NCBI RefSeq assembly: GCF_001306055.1
Contig: NZ_LGHJ01000028.1
Span: forward strand, 1 to 32,000
Reading direction: 5' to 3'
Length of the DNA: 32,000 nt
Source: Bellilinea caldifistulae
GTDB lineage: Bacteria > Chloroflexota > Anaerolineae > Anaerolineales > Anaerolineaceae
Positions 853-11,838 of this stretch are shown here, one piece after another. Position 1 is the stretch's first letter, and every line of letters starts with the position of its first letter. The notes under the pieces were generated by a model that saw nothing but the letters and a program-made list of their open reading frames with translations, did not search any database and was not told the origin of the DNA. A program made the position numbers and the translations under genes.

Positions 853-1155
853 TTAAGATTTCCTCTTAGATAACTGGTTATAATCCCAAAAGTTTTGTTC
901 TGCTTTGATGATTATCTCTCCAAGGATAGAATTTAATGGCCAAGAGTCTATAATTATCCATCCCATCATCCCCCTAGTGCTCAGGCTCTGACGATTTTCC
1001 TGAATGCATTTGAGCATATCCAATAACTGTTCGCGAAAGAATTCCAATTGCTTTCTTGACATAGGCCCAGATTCAGGAACTGAAACGGATGCAACATGCT
1101 CATCAAGGGCATCAACTGCTTGTTGAATGGTTGTAACCACCTGCTCTTTTTTCAT
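853..1155 (-). CDS. putative cognate immunity protein of the RHS toxin (100 aa)
   Basis: Its ATG overlaps the RHS stop codon (ATGA at 1152-1155). It is small and AT-rich like the toxin tip, and its position is typical of rhs immunity genes. No recognisable motifs. Confidence 0.6.
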   Translation of the reverse strand: MKKEQVVTTIQQAVDALDEHVASVSVPESGPMSRKQLEFFREQLLDMLKCIQENRQSLSTRGMMGWIIIDSWPLNSILGEIIIKAEQNFWDYNQLSKRKS

Positions 1156-4100
1156 GGCATCAAATCCTCTAAGCTCAACACGAATTTTTGAATTTGACCC
1201 CCTGGTAAGAACTGTCCTTGAGGAGCGGCTCGACCTTCAATGATTGTTGTGCCAGGGCGGATTTGCCATTGTCTGAAGCGAGTCATTTGATTCCATTCGC
1301 GCTTAATAGCCAAACTTTGTTGAGAGGCAGGAAATGTCTCGAAGAGAAAGCGGCCTTTTTCAAAAGCATTGATATTGTCATAGTACCTGATTCCATATTC
1401 AGCAAAAGTAGATACCCTAACTCTAATGGTGGGGATCTCAAACGACTCGATAATTTGCTTTCTTAGCGAATGTGGAACTCCCATTTTTTGAAGGTAAGCG
1501 GAAGCAGAACGAACACCGTCATATAAGGAATTAATGTCTCTTGTCAGTCTTGCCACATCACCTGCATCATCGGCGTGGGCGGCAAAGCGGATGACCAAGC
1601 CCCCAGCAGGCAGGAAGGGCACTGCCAGGCTGAGGGCATCCAGACCCAACGCAGCCCAGTCTCCCCAGCCAACGGCACAGCCGCGCCTGGCCTTATCGGC
1701 AATCGTGTAAAGGTCAAAGCCCAACATGGCTGCATCGAAGAGCGTCTCGATGAACTCCCCGCTGGGGTCGGTGTAGCGAAGGGGGTTGTTGAGGGCGTAG
1801 GGATAAGGGTTGAGGGTGGCGGGCTGGGAGAGGATGCCGGGGAAGGGGTCGCGGGTGAGGAAGCGCCCCCATTGTGGTGCGTAGTAGCGCGCTCTGAGAT
1901 AGATTAGTTCAGTGGGGTCGTGCCATTCGCCGGTGAAGCCGTAATTTGTTAAGGTGCTGCCGCTGGCCGAAAGCAAATTCCCGAAGGGGTCGAAGGACTG
2001 GCTGCGGATGACATTTCCGCCCGCATCGGTCAGCAGACGCACAGAGCCGAGCCGATCGGTGAGGAAGTAATCCAACTCGCCAGCGGCATCCTGCCGGGCG
2101 ATGCGCTCCAATCCATGATAATACAGAGCGTCGCCTGCGGCAAGTACCTGCGGGAGTGAGGCGGCGCTATCCAGCGTGAAGGTGGTGAGGCTGCCATCGG
2201 CAGTGGTCCGGTAGCGGTTGCCCAGCCCGTCGTAGGCAAAGGAGTAAGCAGCGGCGGGGCCGGTGAGTGTGCTCAGGCGGTTGGCAGCATCGTAGGTATA
2301 GGTGTTGAGCCCGTCGGAGCGCAAATTACCGTTGTCGTCCCAGCTGAAGGCTGTTCCTGCGGCGCTCAACAGGCGGTTGGCGGCGTCGTAGGTGAAGAGG
2401 GTGGCCACGCCGTTTTGCGTCTGGCTGAGGCGGTTGCCGGACGGATCGTAGGTATAGGTGAAGGTATCGCCGGTGCTGGATTGAGCCGCAGTCAGGCGGT
2501 CGAGCGCATCGTATTCGTACCCAATTTGGATAACCTCGGCAGCGGTTTGCGGAGCAGAGGCAGGTGGTGGAACGGCCAGCCCTTTGCCGGTAACGGGCAG
2601 CAGCGCGGTCTGCAGGCGGGTCAGGAAAGTCTCGAAGAAATCAGCCAAGGGCTGCAGCCAGGGCCACGGGTTGAGGGAGGTTTGGGAGGGGGTTGTCTGG
2701 CTTTCCGGCAGCGGGGCGGGGTAGGGGTCGAGCGGCGGGCTGCTACGTTGGGCATCCATGCCGCCGGAAGAAGGTGGTGGCGGATAGGGCGGTGGGAGCG
2801 TTCCACTGCAGAGGTTGCAGACCAATGGCAGGAAGACCTTGCGAAGCGGTAGTGGTGTTGGCGTGGGGGTGCGGGTGGATGTGGATGTGCGGGTGGGGGT
2901 TGGGCTGGCGGTAGCCGTGCGGGTTGGGGTACGGCTCGGCGTTACGGAGGGGGTGGGCGTCAGGGTAACTGTGCTGGTGGGGGTTGGGCTGGGGGTGAGC
3001 GTGACGGTCGGGGTGGATGTAGCCCGGCTCTGGCGGCTTTCCTCGCTCAGGGTCAGGTTTCCGACCGCATCGTATTCGTAGGCATAGGTGTAGATATCGT
3101 CTTGGGTCAGGTGCTGGAGTTCGATTAGCTGCCCGCTGAGATCGTAGGTGTAGTGACTGGAGACGCCGTTGGCTAGACTGCGCTGGATCAGCCGCCCGGT
3201 GACATCGTAGGTGTACTGCACCAGCGGCGTGCTGCCCTCGCGTACCTCAACCAGCCGCCCGGGCGGGTCGTAGTAGTAAGTGAGCGCTTTTCCGGCGGTG
3301 GGCGGGTAGGTAAGGCTGGTGCGCCTGCCTTCGGCATCATAGCCGTAGGTCAGAGTCTTGCCGAAGGGGTCGGTAACCGCCGTAATGCGTCCGAGGGGGT
3401 CGTAAGACCAGCTGGTGCGGCCGAGCCCGTCCTGCATGTCCGTCAAACGGCCGAGCGAATCGTATTCGAAGGACACATCCGCCGTGCCGGGCGGATAATC
3501 CACCGCCTGCAGCCGGTTGGCGAGGTCGTAAGAATTGAGGATAGTGTTGCCGTTGGGGTCGTGTTGGGCGGTGAGGTTGCCGAGCGGATCGTAAGAAAAG
3601 GTCGTCACGTTGCCCAACGGGTCGGTGATGCCGATCAGTCGGTCGAGTACATCATACGTAAAAGTGGTGCTGTGGCCGTTGGCATCGGTGATGCCGGTGA
3701 GGTTGCCCAAAAGGTCATAGTCGTATTGGGTGCGCACGTTGGTCTGGGCGTCGGGAACTGCCCCGGAAACGGCGTTCTGGACCACCGCGCTCAAGAGCCC
3801 CAACGAGTTGTACTCATAACGCGTTACCCGGCCAAGTCCATCCGTGCGCGAGGTAACCTGCCCGGATTGGTTGTAGGTCAGTTCGATGGTGTGTCCAGTG
3901 TTATCCATGATTCGCAGCGGATGGCGCAGGGCATCGTAGGTTTCGTAGAAGATGAGATAGTCCCCGGCGGCGGTGGGATGACTTTCCTCAGCCAGTGTGC
4001 CATCGGGGTTGTAGGAAAAGGTCACCACCATGCGGTTCAGGGCATCCCGCACCCGCCACAGCCGCCCGGCAGTATCGTATTCGTACGAGGTTGTCTGGCC

Positions 4101-6539
4101 GAGCCGGTCGGTTTGGGCAATCAATTGCCCGGCGGGATTGTAGGCAAAGTGGAGAGAGTTGCCGAGCGGGTCGGTGATTTGAATCAAACGTCCGGCCGGG
4201 TCGTAGGTGAAGGAGGTGGTCTGACCGAGCGGGTCAGTGGCTTGCTGCAGCCTGCCGAGCGAATCGTAGGTGAAGGTTTCGGTCAGGTTGAAGAGATTGT
4301 CCTCGTTTTGGGTTTTGGCGGGGTCGTAGTTACGCACCCACCGGATCAGGTTGCCCGCCGGGTCGTAACTCAGGTGGGTAACGCTGCCGCGCGGGTCGGT
4401 CAGACTTACCGGTCTCCCAATCTCGTCATATTCGAAATGGGTGAAGTTCTGGGCGGCATCCTGAATTTGCACCAGCTGACCGAGGGAATCATAGGTGTAG
4501 GTGGTGGTGCGGCCGAGGGCGTCACTGACAGCTTTGAGCAGTCCCGGCGGTTGGGGAAAATCGGCAGCAGTGGTGTAGGTGTAGGTGGTGGTGAGCGTGG
4601 CGCTGCCGGTGTGCAGGCTGGTGGATTGCAGCAACGCCCCCGCATAGGTGAAGGTCAGGGTACGATTTAGCGGATCGGTCAGCTGCACCAGTCGGTTGAC
4701 CGGGTCATATTCCAAATGGGTTTCGTTACCCGCCGCATCGCGGACATAGGTCAGATTGGCTCCGTTGGCGCTCCACTGATACTCGATGCTGCGGTTGTAT
4801 GGATCACGCACCTCAATGGGCCGGAAGTTGGCATCGTAGGTCTTGTTCAGCAAATAGCCGGCCGGATCGCTCTGCCAGATGTTGGTGTGGCGGTCATCGT
4901 AGCCGTCCGTGCGGGGTCGGTCGAGTGCGTCCAGCACGGTGGTGCTGCCATCGGGGTTGAAGGTCAGGTGGACAATACGCTCATTGGCTGCGTTGTATTG
5001 CTGGAAGGCGCGTCCCTGCGAGTCGTAGTGAACGATCAGTTCCACAAAAGGCGGATTGCCGGGGGCAATGACGGTGGTCAGGCGGTGATCCTGATAGGCA
5101 TACTGCCAGACCTGGCCGCGCACATCATTGAATTCAGTCAGGTCACCACTGGCATTGTAACCAAAACTGACCTGACGGTTGGCCGAGTCACTCACCGCAG
5201 CCAGACGGCCGTTCTGGTACTCGAATTGCAGAAAACGCCCGCTGAGCGGCTCGCTCACGCGAGTCAATTGTCCCTCCGTGTAGGTATAATCGAAGCCGAA
5301 ACCACGCTCATCCCGCCAAGACTGTAAACGTCCACTGCCATCGAAAGTATATCGGGAACGGTCGGCTGCAATGAGCATGTAGGTGTTGGTAGGGGAATTA
5401 TAGGTCAGTTGAGCCAGCACTCCCGGGTAGGGTGAGTAAGTGCCGTCGCCTTGTACAAGGAAGCGGTATTGGTTGAGGGTGTGAGCCTTGAACCAGACCG
5501 TATCGTCTTCGAAGAGCAGGCGCACATCCTGATTGTGTGTCCAGCCCGGGCCGAGGTTGGTGGGGTAGAGGGTGGTGTTCACAGCGAGGGAAGCATAGGA
5601 GCGCTGGAAGGAGAGTTCCCCAGCAACGGTATGGAGGGAGAGATCTACAAGGCTGTAATCGAAATTGCCGGTGCGGGTGTCAATCGGGTCACCGGCCGTT
5701 TCGCTTGCATCCCCGCAGGCGCTGACGGCACACTCGCGTGGGTCACCCTGCCCGTTCTTGGGTTGATTGGAGGACAGGGTGGAGCGGTTGGAGAGGGCCG
5801 ATAAAGTTCCATAAACTCGAACCGAGTCGATATAGAATTCCCTTGGATCACAAAAAGCGTTACCGCCATTACTCCAAACGCGAATCCGAACGGCTTGTAC
5901 ATCACCGGTATAGATTCCACCATACCACCCTGCCCCTTGATACCCTCCCACTTCCTGATAAGGATAGGCAATGACCCAATCCGGCGATTCGCAGGGGAGA
6001 GGGGTAGGGGATACGGATAACTCCATGCCCATATCCTGCGTGACATTTTGTGGTTGATGTACAAAGGCTTGAATAGCTGCGTTGGTGAGGTGAACGATTT
6101 GCCCTAGTGTGACCACCATGCAGGCTCGCAAGCCGTTCCCATCCGCATAATGGGAGGAATTGATCAACCTGGCGCTGGCCCCATCCTGCACACCAATGGC
6201 ATTGAGGGGGGAAGACCAGGATACTGTACCAACGCAGTTAAAATAGCCCGAACAGGGGCTGCCATCGAAGCCGGTTTCCAGAATCCCATTGGCGTAGTGA
6301 TATGCAGCGGGGAGGCTGGATTGAGAGACCGAGGCAGGGACCGGATATTGGGAGACAATAGGAAGGGGGGATGAGGCCAGATTGGATGATAGAGCAGCCG
6401 GTTGAAAGTGGCCTGCGGAAACCGGATTTGCCGCTGATGAGACCTTCCGGATGGGGAGGAAAGTGTTGGTCAGTAGGCTGATGACAAGAAAGAAGCGAAT
6501 AATATTTGCATGGAGGTTTTTAGTCGTGAGTGTATGCAT
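1152..6539 (-). CDS. RHS/YD-repeat polymorphic toxin (1795 aa) with N-terminal signal/TM segment, internal Pro/Thr-rich insert and variable C-terminal toxin
   Basis: Dozens of YD repeats are present ([21 protein letters not shown]...). An RHS core follows ([15 protein letters not shown] ... [11 protein letters not shown]). The N-terminus is hydrophobic ([18 protein letters not shown]). GC is 40/60 at 3361-3420. Confidence 0.95.
1756..1785. repeat. RHS core/tip junction repeat, resident copy
   Basis: Pairs with 717-746 (28 of 30 nt identical). It encodes [10 protein letters not shown]. Confidence 0.85.
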
Positions 6540-6722
6540 GGAAAGTATGGTATCCGGTTGGAAGGAGATTTTTGGTTCGAAAAAAGACGGGAAACGGTAT
6601 TTTCTTTATGATACTCAGGGGCAGACTGCCAGGGAGGCTTCCATAAGGGCAATTTTGAGGTCGTAAATGTTAACAATAGGTTAACAAGTCCTTAGAATTC
6701 AGGTGCAAACGGCCATTTTGCG

Positions 6723-6759
6723 CGTCGTACAACATAGTCGTACAATAACTATTGTAAGA
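6723..6759. promoter_or_regulatory. repeated GTCGTACAA motifs and imperfect palindrome upstream of the integrase (candidate recombinase or repressor binding sites)
   Basis: GTCGTACAA occurs at 6723-6731 and 6736-6744. GTCGTACAATA-AC-TATTGTAAGAC (6736-6759) is an 11-bp inverted repeat with one mismatch. A related GCGTCGCACAAT lies at 6823-6834. Confidence 0.3.
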
Positions 6760-6859
6760 CGCAGAAACCCCAAAAACAGCCCCAAAATCCCCATTTTTCG
6801 GGCTTAAAACCGCCTTAAACTGCGTCGCACAATGTTTTTAGCGGGAGGAAAACGCACCC

Positions 6860-7678
6860 ATGAACCCCATGGACGAGTATCTTGCAACCCTCACCAGCCC
6901 CCGCACGGCAGAGCGTTACCGGGCGGCACTGAACGAATTTGCCGACTGGTACACCCAAACCACCGGCGCAAGCGTGGACTGGAACCTGCTCACTGCCGTT
7001 GAGGTCAAGGACTACACCGCCTACCTGCAAACCGTCCGCAGGCTCTCATCGGCGAGCGTCAATCTGCGGTTGGCAGCCCTCCGTTCGTTCCTGCGCCACC
7101 TGGGACGCACCTTGAAGGTGAAAGGCCCCAAGCAGGTCACGCCGCCGGTCAAGGCTCTCTCCGCCCGTGAGTTGGGCAGACTGTTGGCTGCCGCCGAAGG
7201 CAGCACACGGGATACCGCCATCCTCAACCTGATGGCACGGGCAGGTCTGCGGGTGGGTGAGGTAGTCCACCTGCGGGTGGGTGATGTCGAAATGAACGGG
7301 CGTTCAGGGTGGCTGACGGTAAGAGGCGGCAAGGGCAACAAGACCCGCCGTGTACCGCTGAACGGCGAGGTGCGCCAGGCGTTGAAAGCCTGGCTGGACG
7401 AACGCCCCCAGGTAGCAGGCGATGACCTGTTCCTCTCCCGCACGGGCAAGCCGCTCTCGGAGCGGGATGTCCAGCGCATGGTGGCGGAGTATGCCCGCAT
7501 CGCCGGTGTCGAAGCCAGCCCGCACACCCTGCGCCACACCTTTGCCACCCGTGCCATCGAGAAGGGTGTGGATGTGGCCACTCTTGCGGCGATTTTGGGA
7601 CATTCCCGGTTGGAGACGACCGGGCGCTATCTGCACCCGACCGCCGAGCGAATACAGGAGGCGGTAGAGGGAATATGA
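6860..7678 (+). CDS. tyrosine recombinase / phage integrase family (XerC/D-like, 272 aa)
   Basis: Box I is AGLRVGEVVHL. Box II is HTLRHTFATRAIEKGVDVATLAAILGHSRLETTGRYLH, giving the R..HxxR..Y catalytic signature. Confidence 0.9.
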   Translation: MNPMDEYLATLTSPRTAERYRAALNEFADWYTQTTGASVDWNLLTAVEVKDYTAYLQTVRRLSSASVNLRLAALRSFLRHLGRTLKVKGPKQVTPPVKALSARELGRLLAAAEGSTRDTAILNLMARAGLRVGEVVHLRVGDVEMNGRSGWLTVRGGKGNKTRRVPLNGEVRQALKAWLDERPQVAGDDLFLSRTGKPLSERDVQRMVAEYARIAGVEASPHTLRHTFATRAIEKGVDVATLAAILGHSRLETTGRYLHPTAERIQEAVEGI

Positions 7679-7965
7679 CCACCTGGAAGCACACCGAACG
7701 GGCGATTGCAAAGCGGCTGAACGGCAGGCGTCTGGGCGCAACCGGCGGAGCAACGCCGGATGTCATTACTGACCGGCTGGCGGTGGAAGTCAAGCATCGC
7801 AAGGAACTGCCGGGCTGGTTGAAGGACGCTTTGGCGCAGGCAGTCCACAACGCCGGTGAACGCCTGCCGCAGGTAGTGCTGCACGAGGCGGGCAAACGCC
7901 ATGCGGACGATTTGATCTTGCTGCGGATGCAAGACCTGGAACGACTGCTTTCCAAACAATTTTGA
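7675..7965 (+). CDS. PD-(D/E)XK-type nuclease, Holliday-junction-resolvase-like (96 aa)
   Basis: Its ATGA overlaps the integrase stop. The motif TPDVITDRLAVEVKHRK fits D...E-x-K. The protein is small and basic. Confidence 0.55.
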   Translation: MTTWKHTERAIAKRLNGRRLGATGGATPDVITDRLAVEVKHRKELPGWLKDALAQAVHNAGERLPQVVLHEAGKRHADDLILLRMQDLERLLSKQF

Positions 7966-7973
7966 AAAGCCAC

Positions 7974-8002
7974 TTGCACTCTGTCTTTTCTTTTGCTAGA
8001 AT
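7974..8002 (+). promoter_or_regulatory. candidate sigma70-type promoter
   Basis: TTGCAC (7974-7979), a 17-nt spacer, then TAGAAT (7997-8002). Confidence 0.4.
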
Positions 8003-8008
8003 ACGGTC

Positions 8009-8114
8009 AGGAGCGGCTCACAAAGCCCCTCCACCTGACTGAAAGCGTCAAAGCGTCAAACCGGCTTACAAAGCCCGTTGGACGAATGCGAAAGCATTTG
8101 CCAACGGGTTTTTT
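8009..8114 (+). ncRNA. candidate ~105-nt small RNA or attenuator leader bounded by a promoter and an intrinsic terminator
   Basis: It lies between the promoter at 7974-8002 and the terminator at 8074-8114. It contains hairpin GTCAGG...CCTGAC, tandem AAGCGTCAA x2, and two GGCTYACAAAGCC hairpins (8015-8027, 8063-8075). No ORF with an SD site is present. Confidence 0.3.
8074..8114 (+). terminator. rho-independent terminator
   Basis: CCCGTTGG (8074-8081) pairs with CCAACGGG (8101-8108). An inner AATGC-GAAA-GCATT stem sits inside, and TTTTTT follows at 8109-8114. Confidence 0.6.
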
Positions 8115-8142
8115 GGTTATCGGCTGGCGGATAAGCCGCCTT

Positions 8143-8206
8143 CTGGGTGCAACTCCCGGACAGCCACTTTCCACCGGCTTACAAAGCCCGTGGCGGGACT
8201 TTAACA
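8143..8206 (+). promoter_or_regulatory. repeated structured module, copy A (T-arm-like hairpin, second hairpin, TTAACA)
   Basis: CTGGG-TGCAACT-CCCGG at 8143-8159. CCCG-TGG-CGGG at 8187-8197. ACTTTAACA ends at 8206. Confidence 0.4.
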
Positions 8207-8320
8207 AGCGAGCAGTTCACCGGCTTACCGGCGTCCACTGGGACAAATCCCTTTCGTTCCCCACTCCGAAGGGAGAGCAGCACTCTCCCGCCGGAATGGG
8301 GAACGAAAGGAGGTGATGCC

Positions 8321-8479
8321 ATGAACCTGCTCCAAGCAATCCCCCTGCTGGTCATCTTTGCCGTGTTGCTGATTGCGTATGACCTGGCGCAAAAATACTT
8401 CATCCTTCGGATGCTAAAACAGGCAAAAGACAAGGATGAGCGTGAGGTCATCATCACGCTTTTGACCCGCAGGCGGTAA
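8321..8479 (+). CDS. small membrane protein (52 aa)
   Basis: AAAGGAGG SD lies 7 nt upstream of ATG 8321. The N-terminus is hydrophobic (LLQAIPLLVIFAVLLIAY) and the tail is basic. Confidence 0.6.
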   Translation: MNLLQAIPLLVIFAVLLIAYDLAQKYFILRMLKQAKDKDEREVIITLLTRRR

Positions 8480-8542
8480 AGTCCCCCCGGAGAGCGGCCA
8501 CAAAGCCCCTCTCCAAATTTACCGCTCCGCAGAGTGCCGTGT

Positions 8543-8596
8543 GCGGGTGCAAATCCCGCAGGAGTGATCTGCCCGAAAGGGCGCAGTACCTTAACA
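8543..8596 (+). promoter_or_regulatory. repeated structured module, copy B
   Basis: GCGGG-TGCAAAT-CCCGC at 8543-8559. GCCC-GAAA-GGGC at 8571-8582. GCAGTACCTTAACA ends at 8596. Confidence 0.45.
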
Positions 8597-8627
8597 CCGC
8601 CGCTTGTCAACGGCAGTCTCTTTTCTG

Positions 8628-8693
8628 GGCGGCTGCACCCGCCACCAAACTATTTGGTCGGCGGTGCAGCGCCGACCCGAAAGGAGGAAAACC
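8628..8693 (+). promoter_or_regulatory. structured 5' leader L1 (two hairpins, the second abutting the SD)
   Basis: GGCGG-CTGCAC-CCGCC at 8628-8643. GGTCGGCG-GTGCAG-CGCCGACC at 8656-8677, followed directly by CGAAAGGAGG and ATG 8694. It is a paralogue of 9393-9467. Confidence 0.5.
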
Positions 8694-8891
8694 ATGTTCG
8701 TCTTCTTTTACGTATTCTTTGAGTTTGACGAAATGATTGCCGTTGACGCCTCCGATAAAGCCCACCGATTCCACGCAAAACACCCGGTCTCTTTCGTGTG
8801 GGTAAGAGACGATGGTGACTGGGTTTGGCGTTGGGAGCATGGGATGGTCTGGCCGGTAAGACCGGCTAGTGAGGAGGATTGGCGGCGGTAA
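8694..8891 (+). CDS. hypothetical small protein (65 aa, Trp-rich)
   Basis: GAAAGGAGG SD lies 7 nt before ATG 8694. The ORF is in frame with track ORF 8604-8891. Confidence 0.6.
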   Translation: MFVFFYVFFEFDEMIAVDASDKAHRFHAKHPVSFVWVRDDGDWVWRWEHGMVWPVRPASEEDWRR

Positions 8892-8894
8892 AAT

Positions 8895-8914
8895 GCAGGG
8901 CTACCCAGCCCTGC
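8895..8914 (+). terminator. post-gene hairpin with conserved TACCCA loop (copy 1)
   Basis: GCAGGGC-TACCCA-GCCCTGC starts 4 nt after the stop codon. A second hairpin AGAGGGCTT-GGGTA-AAGCCCTCT follows at 8921-8943. No strong U-tract is present. Confidence 0.4.
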
Positions 8915-8983
8915 CCCCCAAGAGGGCTTGGGTAAAGCCCTCTTTCCGAGAACTCCGCTCCGTTTTGGAGCGATGATATACCG

Positions 8984-9025
8984 ACAGCACATTACCAACA
9001 GCACATTACCAACAGCACTAAGCCA
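8984..9025. repeat. 14-bp tandem repeat x3 (third copy degenerate)
   Basis: ACAGCACATTACCA at 8984-8997 and 8998-9011. ACAGCACTAAGCCA at 9012-9025. Confidence 0.9.
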
Positions 9026-9026
9026 A

Positions 9027-9070
9027 CCGCCCTCGCAGTCCCGCCGGTGCAACTCCGGCAGGGCGGTTTT
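9027..9070 (+). terminator. branched terminator-like structure containing a T-arm-like hairpin (module copy C1)
   Basis: Outer stem CCGCCCT (9027-9033) pairs with AGGGCGG (9060-9066). It encloses GCCGG-TGCAACT-CCGGC (9043-9059) and is followed by TTTT (9067-9070). Confidence 0.4.
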
Positions 9071-9321
9071 GGCAGGGCAGTATAAACAGGCGTCCCTCTA
9101 CCCGGAGGGATGTGTACGGGAAGCGGAAACCGTGCGCTTGACAATTCCGGCTCTGCCCTGCCGGATGCCAAAACCCACCCGAAAGGAGGTGAGAGCCTGC
9201 AATACCCAAATTCATTTCAGGGAGAGCGGGCGCAAACTCCGGCACAGCCGGGAACGGGTTGCGGCGTCCAATCTCCCGCCGGGAAGGACACCCTCCTGCC
9301 CGCCATGCCAACCTCACCGCT

Positions 9322-9356
9322 GACGGGACGGATAAATCCCGTCTTGCACCTTAACA
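9322..9356 (+). promoter_or_regulatory. repeated structured module, 3' half copy (C2)
   Basis: GACGGGA...TCCCGTC hairpin at 9322-9343, followed by TTGCACCTTAACA ending at 9356. Compare GCAGTACCTTAACA in copy B and ACTGCACATTAACA in copy D. Confidence 0.4.
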
Positions 9357-9392
9357 AGGTTATATCGCTCGCCAATCGCCTCGTTCTCTTTC

Positions 9393-9467
9393 GGGCAGCC
9401 GCACCTGCCCGCCGACTCATACACCACATGGGTCGGCGGTGCGGAGCCGACCCGAAGGAGGATTGCC
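9393..9467 (+). promoter_or_regulatory. structured 5' leader L2 (paralogue of L1)
   Basis: GGGCAG-CCGCAC-CTGCCC at 9393-9410. GGGTCGGC-GGTGCGGA-GCCGACCC at 9430-9453, followed directly by GAAGGAGG and ATG 9468. Confidence 0.5.
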
Positions 9468-9845
9468 ATGTCTTTCACCCCTCTACCGGGCAAAATCGTT
9501 GCCCAAGTCACCGTTACCGAAGAGGACGTTTTCTACGCATTGGTCTATCGGGAACAGGCAAAAGATTGGCGGAAATTCATCGAATACCTGTGCGATCATC
9601 TGGCAGATGCGCTCAATGAGCATGTGTACGATGAAATCCGCTACCTCTACGATGCCTGGCTGGAACAACAGCAGGAAGAATGTCCTCACCGGCGAACCAC
9701 CGTCATCACTACCGGCGGCTATCACTTTGACGCAGGAGAGGTTTGGGATGACCTCCACGAGGAAGTCCACTGCCTCGACTGCGGAGCCGTGCTGACTGTG
9801 CTGACTGATGAAGACGAAGAAGAGCCTGCTGAGGATATGCCATGA
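9468..9845 (+). CDS. hypothetical acidic protein with a possible Zn-binding pair (CPH ... CLDCG), 125 aa
   Basis: It has a strong SD site, and its stop overlaps the next start (ATGA at 9842-9845). Confidence 0.65.
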   Translation: MSFTPLPGKIVAQVTVTEEDVFYALVYREQAKDWRKFIEYLCDHLADALNEHVYDEIRYLYDAWLEQQQEECPHRRTTVITTGGYHFDAGEVWDDLHEEVHCLDCGAVLTVLTDEDEEEPAEDMP

Positions 9846-10048
9846 GACCAGAAGTAGGCGAAATCGTCCGAATTGGTAAAAGCACTTTTGTCGTCATCCT
9901 GGTCTCCGACCTGGGAGATGACCGTTGGGTAGTCTGGCTGCGGTTACTGGGGCGTGGAAAACGCCGTTACACCACCCACGCTTGGCGTTCTGCCAGCGGT
10001 CAAATCGTGTATGGCGAACCCTTGCAAGCCGTCCCTTCCTTTCGGTAA
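9842..10048 (+). CDS. hypothetical small protein (68 aa)
   Basis: It is translationally coupled to the upstream gene by an ATGA overlap. No motifs are recognised. Confidence 0.5.
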   Translation: MRPEVGEIVRIGKSTFVVILVSDLGDDRWVVWLRLLGRGKRRYTTHAWRSASGQIVYGEPLQAVPSFR

Positions 10049-10125
10049 CGCCAAAAACCCCGCCGTGCCGGGGAGAACTAGTCTCTCCCGGTGCGGCACG
10101 GCGTACCGGGAAAAGGAGGATTATC

Positions 10126-10434
10126 ATGTTGCAAGAAGCCACACTCAAACGGCTGGAAAAAGGGCTGCTGGGTGCAGCCAACGGGCTGATCAAAATTGTC
10201 TCGCGGATGACCGCCAAAGCCCCTGACGGGAATACCGCCATACTGTGGGAGATTTTCTCCCGGCAAAGCAATCCGCAAGGCACGACCTACTTTGTGGGTT
10301 ACAAGCCTGCAACCGGTGAATGGCGTTGTACCTGCCCGGACTTCCAGAAGCGGGGCCACAAAACGCCTTGCAAGCATATCTTGCTGGCACAGGTGGAACA
10401 CCAGCAACGGGTAGAGGAGGCGCAGCATGGCTAA
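10126..10434 (+). CDS. SWIM zinc-finger protein (102 aa)
   Basis: AAAGGAGGA SD lies before ATG 10126, in frame with track ORF 9925-10434. WRCTCPDFQKRGHKTPCKHIL matches the CxC-x(n)-CxH SWIM signature. Confidence 0.7.
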   Translation: MLQEATLKRLEKGLLGAANGLIKIVSRMTAKAPDGNTAILWEIFSRQSNPQGTTYFVGYKPATGEWRCTCPDFQKRGHKTPCKHILLAQVEHQQRVEEAQHG

Positions 10435-10696
10435 GATCACCCTGTGGTACCCGGAAGAGAGACCGTCTTATGCCATCTACGACTGGGACGGCAATCTCCT
10501 GGAAGAGGGTCCAATGCTGACCGCCGATGAGGTGTACTGCGATCTGTGTAACGCAGAAGTACCGCTGAACCCGGCACCGATGATCGGCAGTTATGTTCTT
10601 TGTCTCGACTGTCTGGAAAAGATCGAACCGTCCTGGCGGAAGCAGATCAGTCCCTTATTGGAGATGATCTGGCGAGAGCAAATGGCGAGCGAGTAA
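10427..10696 (+). CDS. hypothetical zinc-ribbon protein (CDLC ... CLDC), 89 aa
   Basis: GAGGAGG SD lies 6 nt before the ATG. It overlaps the upstream gene by 8 nt. Confidence 0.6.
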   Translation: MAKITLWYPEERPSYAIYDWDGNLLEEGPMLTADEVYCDLCNAEVPLNPAPMIGSYVLCLDCLEKIEPSWRKQISPLLEMIWREQMASE

Positions 10697-10701
10697 CACC
10701 C

Positions 10702-10723
10702 GGCAGGGCTACCCAGCCCTGCC
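10702..10723 (+). terminator. post-gene hairpin with conserved TACCCA loop (copy 2)
   Basis: GGCAGGGC-TACCCA-GCCCTGCC starts 6 nt after the stop codon at 10696. Confidence 0.4.
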
Positions 10724-10755
10724 CATCCGAAAATTCCACCCTGCACAGTGCGAAA

Positions 10756-10806
10756 GGCGGTGCAAGTCCGCCAGGGTGATTTCCCGCAAGGGACTGCACA
10801 TTAACA
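10756..10806 (+). promoter_or_regulatory. repeated structured module, copy D
   Basis: GGCGG-TGCAAGT-CCGCC at 10756-10772. CCC-GCAA-GGG at 10783-10792. ACTGCACATTAACA ends at 10806. Confidence 0.45.
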
Positions 10807-10977
10807 ACAGCATAGGCGGATACGGGACGGGTAAATCTCCCTGCCGCACGGCCTCCCTCTGCTCACGATTGTACATCGTGGGTGGAGCGAGACTGTGTGG
10901 CTTACCCCTGACGCAGCAGGGCAATACACTCTGAATTGCCCTCGGCTGCGGACGAGGGCGCAAAAAGGAGGTTTACC

Positions 10978-11787
10978 ATGTCCACTCTTTCTAACATCTT
11001 CACCCTAACCGGTCTGACGCTGGATGAAGCCATCCAGCAGTTGGATCAAGAGTTGCCCGCCGGGGCATACAAGGCAGTGCCGGGAGCGGTTGACCTGACC
11101 GACATTGACCCGAACTGGATGCGGAAAACGCTTAATCATGTGTTTGGGTTGTGTGGGTACGGCTGGGGATACGAGTATGACCCTGCCAATCTGGAATACC
11201 GCTACGAGTCCCGCACCAATGCGAGGGGCAATGAATATGGCGTCTGGTCTGCGGTGTTGACGCATTTGAAGTTCTGGTACAGGCTTCAAAATGATACTGC
11301 CAGCGTGACCCATGTCTGCTCCATCCATGCCAGTGGCGCAAGCGAAAACGCAAACATTGCCTACGCCATGAAAGGGGCGATTACCAACGCTTTGGGGAAC
11401 GCCGTTAGCAATATCGGCTTCCAGGAAAGCGTGTACCTGGGACTGCGGTCTCACAAGGATTTTGCCCCGAACGGCAATGGCAAAGTGACACCCCAGCCTG
11501 CGCCGAAACCCACCCTTGCGCCTGCGGTTGCGTCTGCTGAACCGGCTGAAACGCCTGCACCGGTAGCGGAACTGGCCGATCCGGGTCAGACCGTCATCCA
11601 CTTTGGCAAGATGAAAGACAAGACCATTGCCGAAGTGTGGAAGTCTGGCCCTGCCGGTCAGGGATGGGTACGCTGGGCTGCAAACACGGATGGCAAGGGC
11701 TATGACCCACAAGGCAAGCCCGAAGGCATCCACTTGCAGCGCATGGCGCGGGCATTCCTCAGCCTGCAATCCGCCTATGCTGGCTAA
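10978..11787 (+). CDS. Rad52/Sak-like single-strand annealing protein (269 aa)
   Basis: AAAGGAGG SD lies before ATG 10978. WMRKTLNHVFGLCGYGWGYEY and AMKGAITNALGNAVSNIGF resemble the two conserved Rad52-family blocks (xLNxxFGxxGW and K.A.TDALKRA..xFG). The C-terminal tail is Pro/Ala-rich. Confidence 0.6.
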   Translation: MSTLSNIFTLTGLTLDEAIQQLDQELPAGAYKAVPGAVDLTDIDPNWMRKTLNHVFGLCGYGWGYEYDPANLEYRYESRTNARGNEYGVWSAVLTHLKFWYRLQNDTASVTHVCSIHASGASENANIAYAMKGAITNALGNAVSNIGFQESVYLGLRSHKDFAPNGNGKVTPQPAPKPTLAPAVASAEPAETPAPVAELADPGQTVIHFGKMKDKTIAEVWKSGPAGQGWVRWAANTDGKGYDPQGKPEGIHLQRMARAFLSLQSAYAG

Positions 11788-11802
11788 TTCCCTGCGGGAA
11801 CA

Positions 11803-11826
11803 GAGCCGGACTACCCAGTCCGGCTC
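11803..11826. terminator. hairpin with conserved TACCCA loop (copy 3), placed between convergent transcription units
   Basis: GAGCCGGAC-TACCCA-GTCCGGCTC has a 9-bp stem. It lies at the GC-content break between the two elements. Confidence 0.4.
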
Positions 11827-11829
11827 ATA

Positions 11830-11838
11830 GGCTTAAGA
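11830..11838. repeat. GGCTTAAGA, left copy of a 9-bp direct repeat flanking the AT-rich island
   Basis: It is identical to 30582-30590 and sits where composition switches from GC-rich to AT-rich. Confidence 0.45.

Follow-up and report, generated by a model that had tools for sequence, protein, structure and literature searches.

A repeated, covarying T-loop RNA motif in a Chloroflexota integrative element and its relatives in phages

We describe an RNA motif of about 47 nt that is repeated in a 32,000-nt stretch of DNA from Bellilinea caldifistulae (Anaerolineae, Chloroflexota; record DF967971.1), referred to below as the window, where all copies lie in a small phage-like integrative element at ~6670–11830. 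The motif is spread over Chloroflexota phage-like integrative elements and phages of very different GC content, and to judge from its sequence it is a new, widespread, tRNA-elbow-based RNA class of phages and integrative elements. Most likely, it indicates the sites at which long transcripts are cleaved or their ends shielded. In the specific form that we prefer, while giving it somewhat less than an even chance, the motif would be a tRNA-like punctuation signal that RNase P and RNase Z cut, with a reload site for Nus factors after it.

An earlier note on this DNA had proposed a structured RNA of two covarying hairpins in three full and two partial copies, and every stem, 7-nt loop, second-hairpin sequence and TTAACA tail that it quoted is in place. 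The window, however, holds four complete cores, all on the + strand. They are listed here with P1 as the outer stem and with scores from R2, a covariance model rebuilt from the alignment of homologues found elsewhere (73 matches, 71 distinct).

8120–8169, + strand: core copy A (26.9 bits, E = 2.5e-5); P1 8122–8126/8161–8165, T-loop hairpin 8143–8159, flank A-CUU-U
8521–8570, + strand: core copy B (54.6 bits, E = 3.8e-13; folded); P1 8523–8528/8561–8566, junction GCAGAGUGC at 8529–8537, T-loop hairpin 8543–8559, bulged A at 8560, flank A-UCU
9026–9069, + strand: core copy C, of a short-junction type (45.8 bits, E = 1.2e-10; fold z = −2.3); P1 9027–9033/9060–9066 (7 bp), junction CGCAGUCCC, T-loop hairpin 9043–9059
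10735–10782, + strand: core copy D, the best match (66.3 bits, E = 1.9e-16; folded); P1 10737–10742 CACCCU / 10773–10778 AGGGUG, junction GCACAGUGC at 10743–10751 followed by linker GAAA, T-loop hairpin 10756–10772, flank A-UUU

The 32-kb window contains exactly four instances of the pattern GGTGCAANTCC (8146, 8546, 9046 and 10759, all on the + strand, within 8146–10769), compared with a mean of 0.09 matches in shuffled windows, none of 100 shuffles reaching four. Model R2 scores these copies at 66, 55, 46 and 27 bits (E 2e-16 to 2.5e-5) and has no further match anywhere in the window on either strand. Copy C, formerly counted as partial, is thus a complete core with a short junction, whereas the other partial copy (9322–9357) is a hairpin-plus-tail module only. 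Minimum-free-energy folds give P1, a GCA/UGC mini-hairpin, the T-loop hairpin, a second hairpin (hairpin 2) and an unpaired tail. The fold of copy A is a three-way junction, in which the junction sequence forms a true 4-bp hairpin, GCGG-AUAAG-CCGC (8127–8139), with an ..AAG loop.

The conserved unit has three helices in a tRNA-like arrangement (P1, the putative GCA/UGC mini hairpin and the T-loop hairpin) rather than two hairpins; the outer stem P1 of 6–7 bp around hairpin 1 and the junction GCAnAGUGC had been overlooked. Read from its 5' side, the core consensus begins with an A/U-rich, G-poor leader and continues with the 5' strand of P1, the nearly invariant junction GCA-nAG-UGC (9–16 nt), a purine-rich linker of 4–5 nt, and hairpin 1, a 5-bp stem closed by G-G/C-C around the loop U-G-C-A-A-n-U. 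The 3' strand of P1 directly abuts that of the T stem in ~70% of copies and is followed by a flank R-Y-Y-U, with a purine at +1 in 64/67, mostly pyrimidines at +2 and +3, and U at +4 in 62/67. The stretch AGG(A/G)TGAT(C/T)T, read by the earlier note as a follow-on of hairpin 1, is indeed conserved but consists of the P1 3' strand and this flank. P1 comprises 6 bp and a seventh position (U-A, C-G or C-A), where 41 sequences have a Watson–Crick or G-U pair and most others a C-A mismatch. About 21 nucleotides of the core are near-invariant, and insertions are confined to the linker, namely a 13-nt hairpin in two sister elements (L021, L026) and ~75 nt in the version found in phage tRNA arrays (L040–L045).

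Two side observations concern the core itself. In copies B and D and most Chloroflexota copies, the P1 3' strand with its flank (GGAGUGAUCU, AGGGUGAUUU, GAGGUGACUU) looks like an extended Shine-Dalgarno sequence, and the P1 5' strand (CCACUCC, CCACCCU) like the 16S rRNA 3' tail; this likeness is lineage-specific or coincidental, because phage copies with unrelated P1 sequences lack it. An expanded version of ~135 nt is present within phage tRNA arrays (L040–L045, L066 and L078; for example L043 2090–2225) and is missed by ARAGORN and Rfam alike. Its outer stem has 10 bp; together with the junction GCAUAGUGC and a T-loop hairpin at the terminus, this stem encloses a canonical GGUUCGAUUCC T-arm as well as another UGCAAAU hairpin.

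Homologues were reached along two routes. Relatives of a 269-aa protein encoded in the element led to sister elements, each with one to six motif copies on the gene strand: a second Bellilinea copy (L004), elements of Anaerolinea thermolimosa (L006) and of an Anaerolinea thermophila metagenome-assembled genome (MAG; L007), and further ones in other Chloroflexota MAGs (L005, L021, L024, L026 and L032). Scans for patterns in which nothing but the junction and the loop was fixed added 16 IMG/VR contigs and 39 metagenome contigs, the latter nearly all full-length model matches and often with multiple copies per contig. The first viral pattern scan (GGTGCAANTCCNNCAGGRTGAT) gave a single match in a coding region, without a stem, that was judged to be chance. 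Cultured phages searched for relatives returned only tRNA or helicase similarity, and viral relatives of the 269-aa protein were looked for and none were found.

The covariation alignment draws on these Chloroflexota elements, IMG/VR phages and metagenomes. Among its 71 distinct sequences, 98.9% of paired cells are complementary, against 61% in shuffled alignments and at most 49% when the partners are slid, and the covariation score is 0.89 against 0.18 in shuffles. Compensatory changes occur in 9 of 11 base pairs (all six of P1 and the three outer pairs of the T stem), while the two inner G-C pairs of the T stem are invariant and the UGCAA loop is kept in 70/71. The proposal of a structured RNA with compensatory changes, functional in appearance, holds up well on this larger set. 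Other pairings found no such backing. The GCA/UGC mini hairpin of 3 bp in the junction is possible according to the folding models, and covariation neither proves nor refutes it because the junction is nearly invariant. A pseudoknot of linker or junction with the R-Y-Y-U flank was rejected, as the pairing is inconsistent and only the −1/+1 pair stood out in a mutual-information scan; pairing of the junction GUGC with a GCAC in the tail was likewise rejected, as the tail often reads GAAC while the junction stays constant, and covariation gives no support.

Which strand carries the function? In the alignment of homologues, 30 paired cells are G-U and two are A-C, and because G-U cells so far exceed A-C cells the folded strand is the sense strand. 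This bears on a reading at the DNA level, in which hairpin 1 would be a single-stranded hairpin site for the tyrosine recombinase of the element, attC- or dif-like, that marks cassette boundaries. In its favour, structured repeats separate the small genes of an array that has an integrase at one end, related elements differ in gene order, and the two arms of hairpin 1 form an inverted repeat around a conserved 7-nt spacer. We nonetheless consider this reading highly improbable: recombinase arm sites are expected to be conserved rather than covarying, the loop equals known RNA T-loops in a sense-strand fold, the motif also occurs in phage tRNA arrays and 5' untranslated regions (UTRs), and there is no RYYYAAC/GTTRRRY core pair, the GTTRRRY partner being absent.

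The genomic contexts point to a role that is independent of any one gene. The motif lies in intergenic regions or 5' UTRs, 29–58 nt before start codons in phage contigs and 100–230 nt before them in Chloroflexota elements. The intergenic placement noted earlier is confirmed, but the description "upstream of a small gene" was too narrow, since the 269-aa protein, a helicase, a primase, tRNAs and ROOL RNA also lie downstream. The downstream genes are mutually unrelated (small membrane proteins, the 269-aa family, an SNF2-type helicase, a primase and others), on which ground we rejected a cis-regulator of a single gene family. Since, in addition, loci with the motif span 39–77% GC, a universal host factor is favoured. 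Contigs carry two to six copies, one per intergenic region, which argues for a junction signal rather than a once-per-operon signal.

The motif is also associated with tRNAs and with ROOL RNA. At the ends of sister elements the motif stands 12–17 nt upstream of tRNA-Val or tRNA-Asp genes (L004, L006, L032 and L063); copies are also found inside phage tRNA arrays, and the order motif, ROOL, tRNA-Tyr recurs in three independent contigs (L051, L069 and L088), so that ROOL is bracketed by tRNA-shaped elements. The element tRNAs (L004 13840–13915, L006 8882–8959, L032 538–614 and L063 5728–5805) have near-identical acceptor, D and T arms and differing anticodon arms (Val-CAC or Asp-GUC), each with the motif before it and a terminator after it. 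In L051 (3525–4237), within a phage tRNA array, the motif is directly 5' of ROOL (Rfam, 335 bits), with tRNA-Tyr at once after; in L052, where the motif is degenerate, there is no ROOL. Several metagenome contigs (L062, L065, L083 and L086) have long G-rich tracts downstream of the motif, with a period of ~8 nt and GGC units (..GGCGAGGCGGGGCCGGGCGAUG..), that look non-coding.

Stable hairpins flank the core on both sides. One ends 1–13 nt before P1 in 56/67 instances (mean z = −2.5), and another usually starts 3–5 nt after +1. One of those in the window is the following.

10702–10724, + strand: hairpin GGCAGGGC-UACCCA-GCCCUGCC past a stop codon (−18.8 kcal/mol, z = −4.9)

It ends ~12 nt before core D, has similar counterparts at 8895–8916 and 11803–11827, and is a candidate 3'-end protector. 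These three hairpins and others in L004, L006 and L032 share a conserved CUACCCAG apex on covarying stems (inverted, GGGUAA, in L004); they come after stop codons and, with a U-tract, after the element tRNAs. Rfam PhotoRC-I matches weakly and locally (17 bits, E = 0.018 for a 161-nt search). A second hairpin family, of the type GGUGGMCACAAKCCCUG, has a conserved CACAA(A) or UUACAAA loop and may be a protein-binding site; it is found in the window at 8012–8030, 8060–8078, 8173–8191 and 8492–8512, and in L006, L063, L064, L070 and L082.

How could such a core act at so many junctions? Because it folds in the sense strand at unit junctions, independently of the genes, over a wide GC range and in association with tRNAs, a universal role in defining RNA ends is suggested. 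In our preferred reading, each module would be an RNA-level punctuation mark within one long transcript. The core resembles a tRNA shape minus the anticodon arm, with an acceptor stem on a T arm, a small D-like hairpin and a linker of variable-loop length. Within it, the D-like hairpin GCA-nAG-UGC would present its A-G to the T-loop U-G-C-A-A, the A lying between loop A4 and A5 and touching G2 and the G pairing with C3, to give a tRNA-type elbow. We infer this docking because it has been solved in class 3 exoribonuclease-resistant RNAs (xrRNAs) and in the twister-sister ribozyme, and contact with the docking A-G would account for a G at loop position 2 in place of tRNA U55.

The universal tRNA-processing enzymes would recognize the core by its shape: RNase P would cut at the 5' foot of P1, and RNase Z or another 3' activity in the R-Y-Y-U just past P1, releasing a small tRNA-like RNA and separating the cistrons. 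The hairpin that ends 1–13 nt before P1 would then shield the new 3' end, and the one starting 3–5 nt on the new 5' end. In Chloroflexota elements, a boxA-like sequence, nGnACnUUAACAA, follows that downstream hairpin and may reload NusB/NusE on RNA polymerase once the RNA tether has been cut, letting long untranslated spacers escape Rho; such reloading would be analogous to the second boxA in the 16S–23S spacer. The punctuation reading is supported by the copies beside tRNA genes and inside tRNA arrays and by the enrichment of flanking hairpins; it rests on fold, flanks and context, from which cleavage is predicted. Processing and antitermination, both suggested in the earlier note, are the two roles toward which the evidence now seems to lean.

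Several observations weigh against punctuation by a tRNA mimic. ARAGORN calls no tRNA in the window, and RF00005 gives no match even at E ≤ 10 (161-nt search). P1 is 8–9 bp long in 16/67 copies, and ~30% of copies have one extra nucleotide between the T stem and P1, unlike real tRNAs. The T-loop has G where every tRNA has U55, and punctuation would be redundant directly before a real tRNA. The boxA-like tail has a conserved A at position 3 where the gamma-proteobacterial boxA consensus GYTCTTTAANA has U. Finally, the UGCAAGU loop and GCAnAGUGC are far more conserved than RNase P shape mimicry needs, and this excess conservation hints at a more specific tertiary or catalytic role.

It is possible, though less likely than not, that the motif instead belongs to an unrecognized catalytic or nuclease-blocking class, either an RNase J-stalling xrRNA or a new small self-cleaving ribozyme. 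Such a class would be built on the AG-into-UGCAA module of twister-sister and the plant-virus xrRNAs, and it may define the 5' ends of mRNAs, tRNA precursors and ROOL RNA in phages and integrative elements.

In the nuclease-blocking version, a compact fold in each intergenic region would stall RNase J, a 5'-to-3' exonuclease. The RNAs downstream (mRNAs, ROOL) would then persist in a stable, 5'-trimmed form, in the way that exonuclease stalling at the class 3 xrRNAs of plant viruses yields subgenomic RNAs. The motif shares with these the core contact elements (a 5'-side A-G and U-G-C-A-A), the coaxial P1/P2, the small size and the intergenic position, it is always 5' of the unit that would be protected, and the nucleotides 3' of P1 are conserved. 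Its loci are Chloroflexota, low-GC rumen-type and high-GC Actinobacteria-like, and all three kinds of lineage have RNase J. Against this, the apical loop is merely a 7-nt T-loop, no ring-closing pseudoknot was found, with no consistent complementarity between linker or junction and the 3' flank R-Y-Y-U, the junction measures 9–16 nt rather than 2 nt, and stalling has no obvious purpose directly before a tRNA. We therefore judge an xrRNA rather unlikely.

In the ribozyme version, a new small self-cleaving RNA would have adopted the twister-sister T-loop and would cut itself at or near P1, thereby splitting transcription units. Around 21 near-invariant unpaired nucleotides in 47 nt are typical of catalytic cores, the loop of hairpin 1 is identical to that of stem-loop SL4 of twister-sister (PDB 5Y87 chain B, CUGGUGCAAGUCCAG; found by a string search of the literature), the junction GCA(n)AG resembles the L1 strand GCAAG of that ribozyme, and small ribozymes are frequent in phage contexts, here with a copy in each intergenic region. 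What makes this version very doubtful is that only 17 of the 81 positions in the twister-sister model align, scoring 12.6 bits where the threshold is 34 bits, that there is neither an internal loop with a C-A step nor a P2/P3 junction topology, that no conserved dinucleotide is evident as a cleavage site, and that no ribozyme family of Rfam matches the motif.

The punctuation reading presupposes a long transcript, for which the layout of the element is relevant. Its features outside the modules are as follows.

6860–7678: tyrosine integrase gene
7675–7965: gene for a RusA-like protein
7974–8002, + strand: promoter-like TTGCAC-N17-TGcTAGAAT with an extended −10, read from the sequence; putative promoter of the rightward operon
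8070–8118, + strand: leader hairpin with U6, intrinsic-terminator-like (folding −29 kcal/mol, z = −6.7)
8321–8479, + strand: rightward gene with a strong Shine-Dalgarno site
8694–8891, + strand: rightward gene with a strong Shine-Dalgarno site
9468–9845, + strand: rightward gene with a strong Shine-Dalgarno site
9842–10048, + strand: rightward gene with a strong Shine-Dalgarno site
10126–10434, + strand: rightward gene with a SWIM zinc finger and a strong Shine-Dalgarno site
10427–10696, + strand: rightward gene with a strong Shine-Dalgarno site
10978–11787, + strand: rightward gene for the 269-aa protein with a strong Shine-Dalgarno site; weak match to phage exonuclease families

The seven rightward genes appear to form one transcription unit that carries all modules, and the 269-aa protein may be a candidate recombinase. 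A consensus promoter scan did not return the site at 7974–8002, whose −35 hexamer matches at only 3/6 positions. The leader hairpin lies between this promoter and copy A and ends ~9 nt before P1 of that copy, and a terminator scan of the window found no other + strand terminator-like site. It sits ~60 nt past the presumed transcription start. One copy of the repeat ACCGGCUUACAAAGCCCGU, itself folding as a hairpin with a (U/C)ACAAA loop, overlaps its 5' strand; the operon leader at 8005–8118 looks like a terminator/antiterminator switch.

Hairpin 2 and the TTAACA tail, which had been included in the repeated unit, form a separable second element, absent from most phage copies and standing alone at 9322–9357. 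Nor is the GNRA cap a conserved feature, as hairpin 2 is variable, often GNRA-capped and at times replaced by a hairpin of the GGUGGMCACAAKCCCUG type. A hairpin followed after 1–3 nt by nGnACnUUAACAA is present in 32/68 non-redundant modules. The instances in the window, with full tails at 8196, 8586, 9346 and 10796, are these.

8171–8207, + strand: module of copy A, with a UUACAAA-loop hairpin at 8171–8193 and boxA-like tail GGACUUUAACAA at 8196–8207
8571–8597, + strand: module of copy B, with GCCC-GAAA-GGGC at 8571–8582 and tail GUACCUUAACAC at 8586–8597
8987–9012, + strand: two tandem degenerate boxA-like sequences (GCACAUUACCAA, twice; 8987 and 9001) before copy C
9322–9357, + strand: stand-alone hairpin at 9322–9343 and boxA-like tail GCACCUUAACAA at 9346–9357, without a T-loop core (fold z = −3.3)
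10783–10807, + strand: module of copy D, with CCC-GCAA-GGG at 10783–10792 and tail GCACAUUAACAA at 10796–10807

The layout of hairpin 2 and tail resembles boxB–boxA of rrn operons, in whose leaders a hairpin likewise precedes boxA. The E. coli rrn boxA is GCUCUUUAACAA, of which the best tail copies match 10 of 12 positions. Position 5 of GYTCTTTAANA is variable in the tail, which is closer to the cyanobacterial boxA, GAACCTTGAAAA. There is no rRNA in any related locus gathered, so that the tail was compared only with the boxA of other groups. BoxA-like matches outside the element on the minus strand (116, intergenic; 762, in an apparent RHS remnant; 1946, within the RHS coding sequence) were judged coincidental. 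The tail hexamer TTAACA was also tried as a −35 element and rejected, as no copy has a −10-like hexamer 16–18 nt downstream; the same hexamer is found in a promoter-like TTAACA-N17-TAGAAT at 6670–6698, before the integrase gene.

This second module raises the question of put- or nut-like antitermination. The T-loop fold would then bind RNA polymerase, a Nus factor or an element protein, and core and adjacent boxB–boxA-like site together would carry transcription past terminators and Rho sites. Such a role would fit the coupling of core to boxA-like tail in 32/68 modules, the strong leader terminator and very long untranslated spacers of the element, the untranslated RNAs (tRNAs, ROOL) that the motif precedes and that are exposed to Rho, and the replication-type helicase, primase and possible recombinase among the genes that follow. 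However, processive antitermination needs one site per operon and not one per 0.4–1.7 kb, all copies lie downstream of the only + strand intrinsic terminator seen, most phage copies have no tail, and no protein co-occurs with the motif over loci of 39–77% GC. As an account of the core, antitermination is in our view decidedly unlikely; in the punctuation reading, the tail would serve after the cut.

Some further observations were made in and around the element. Long, related hairpins at 8632–8670 and 9394–9452 directly precede the Shine-Dalgarno sites of two genes (GGUCGGCGGUGCRG..GCCGACCCGAA-GGAGG) and may be translational control structures. Past copy C, the region 9070–9323 is highly structured, UUUUGGCAGGGCAG pairing with CUGCCCUGCC..GCCAAAA ~90 nt apart. 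It also includes, after AAAGGAGGUGA, a possible 44-codon GTG open reading frame (9189–9323), of which L004 has a Cys/Pro-rich counterpart that is similar in part. To the left of the element is an RHS/YD-repeat toxin gene with an orphan C-terminal cassette (within 1152–6539). To the right (11830–32000), a low-GC island (~40–45% GC) encodes a 1674-aa DEAD/MZB helicase, a 1200-aa protein and an N6/N4 methyltransferase and looks like a defence island; the element abuts it and lacks the motif-tRNA end of its sister elements. The sister element L004 adjoins a HigB/HTH pair and a type I restriction-modification system.

What would follow from these readings? If the motif is a punctuation signal, bacterial mobile elements would punctuate their operons with dedicated tRNA mimics, as organelles do, and this would account for the defined 5' end of ROOL RNA and for a boxA-like site repeated after every junction. 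If one of the rivals holds, the motif would instead represent either the first xrRNA of prokaryotes or a new class of ribozyme. Either way, it would provide a small, portable element that defines RNA ends or insulates units, useful in synthetic biology, and a third clean example of the AG:UGCAA T-loop docking module, with the contact predicted here from the conserved sequences.

Comparison with known RNAs places the motif outside described families, in line with the earlier note: it was found neither in Rfam 15 nor in the literature searched. At gathering thresholds Rfam 15 has no match in the window, and in related loci it reports nothing at the motif, only tRNAs and ROOL; permissive scans of the window, related loci and phage copies return no family, the sole relevant match being a local twister-sister hairpin. 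A dedicated bacterial or phage family of tRNA-like processing signals is described neither in Rfam 15 nor in the literature searched. The T-loops of cobalamin, FMN and SAM riboswitches were considered as leads that no model match supported, and a tRNA or att-site tRNA fragment was rejected on account of the negative ARAGORN result, the G at loop position 55 and the covarying stems.

HK022 put RNA is likewise a cis-acting structured phage RNA of early transcripts that needs only a universal host machine; it differs in having two stem-loops and no T-loop, in occurring once per operon and in showing no sequence or model similarity to the motif. The rrn and lambdoid antitermination sites (boxB hairpin and boxA, for NusB-NusE loading) bear comparison with the second module, and not with the core, for its order of a hairpin and, after 1–3 nt, a single-stranded nGnACnUUAACAA. 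In rrn operons boxA is repeated in the 16S–23S spacer, as the boxA-like site of the element is repeated after presumed processing sites, whereas the element has four to six sites per 5 kb and no evident N-like protein.

Twister-sister (RF02681; PDB 5Y87) has in SL4, CUGG-UGCAAGU-CCAG, the same 7-nt T-loop and G-C closing pairs, and in 5Y87 an adenine of the L1 GCAA strand stacks between A33 and A34 and pairs with G31. The local RF02681 match comprises SL4 alone (GGUGCAAGYCC, positions 31–47), below the gathering score of 34 bits, and the motif has no P1-L1-P2 internal loop, C-A scissile step, P3 or P5 junction, its P1 being an uninterrupted covarying helix. The class 3 xrRNAs of plant viruses, like plant xrRNAs in general, mostly occupy intergenic positions in viral genomes. 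In them a bulged A-G is docked into a U-G-C-A-A T-loop, which mirrors the tRNA D-loop/T-loop elbow. AG is present in every junction type of the motif and the UGCAA loop is conserved, and a similar contact is predicted. The xrRNAs differ in a bulge of 2 nt and a P1 of 3–4 bp, and their T-loop is part of a large apical loop, which also pairs with the 3' tail as the ring-closing pseudoknot.

The geometry of the core is that of a tRNA-like RNA. The core and tRNA both have the 12-bp acceptor/T-arm geometry, with P1 (6 bp and the seventh position) stacked on a 5-bp stem with a 7-nt loop, gapless in ~70% of copies of the motif, and both have G53-C61-type closing pairs, U1...A5 and a U at loop position 7. 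The motif also has a D-loop-like loop partner and a 4–5-nt linker at the position of the variable loop. It differs from the tRNA T-loop U54-U55-C56-R57-A58 in reading U-G-C-A-A in 70/71 sequences, with G at position 55 (UGCAAnU versus UUCRAnY) and an A-G partner versus G18-G19; its D-like hairpin has merely 2–4 bp, and only 4–5 nt stand where the anticodon arm would sit, so that there is no cloverleaf with such an arm. In its position between cistrons and inside tRNA arrays, the motif resembles tRNA-like processing signals such as mascRNA, the tRNAs of the mitochondrial punctuation model and the t-elements of plant mitochondria. Of these, the t-elements are the nearest documented precedent: in them, cleavage by RNase P and RNase Z generates the ends of mRNAs.

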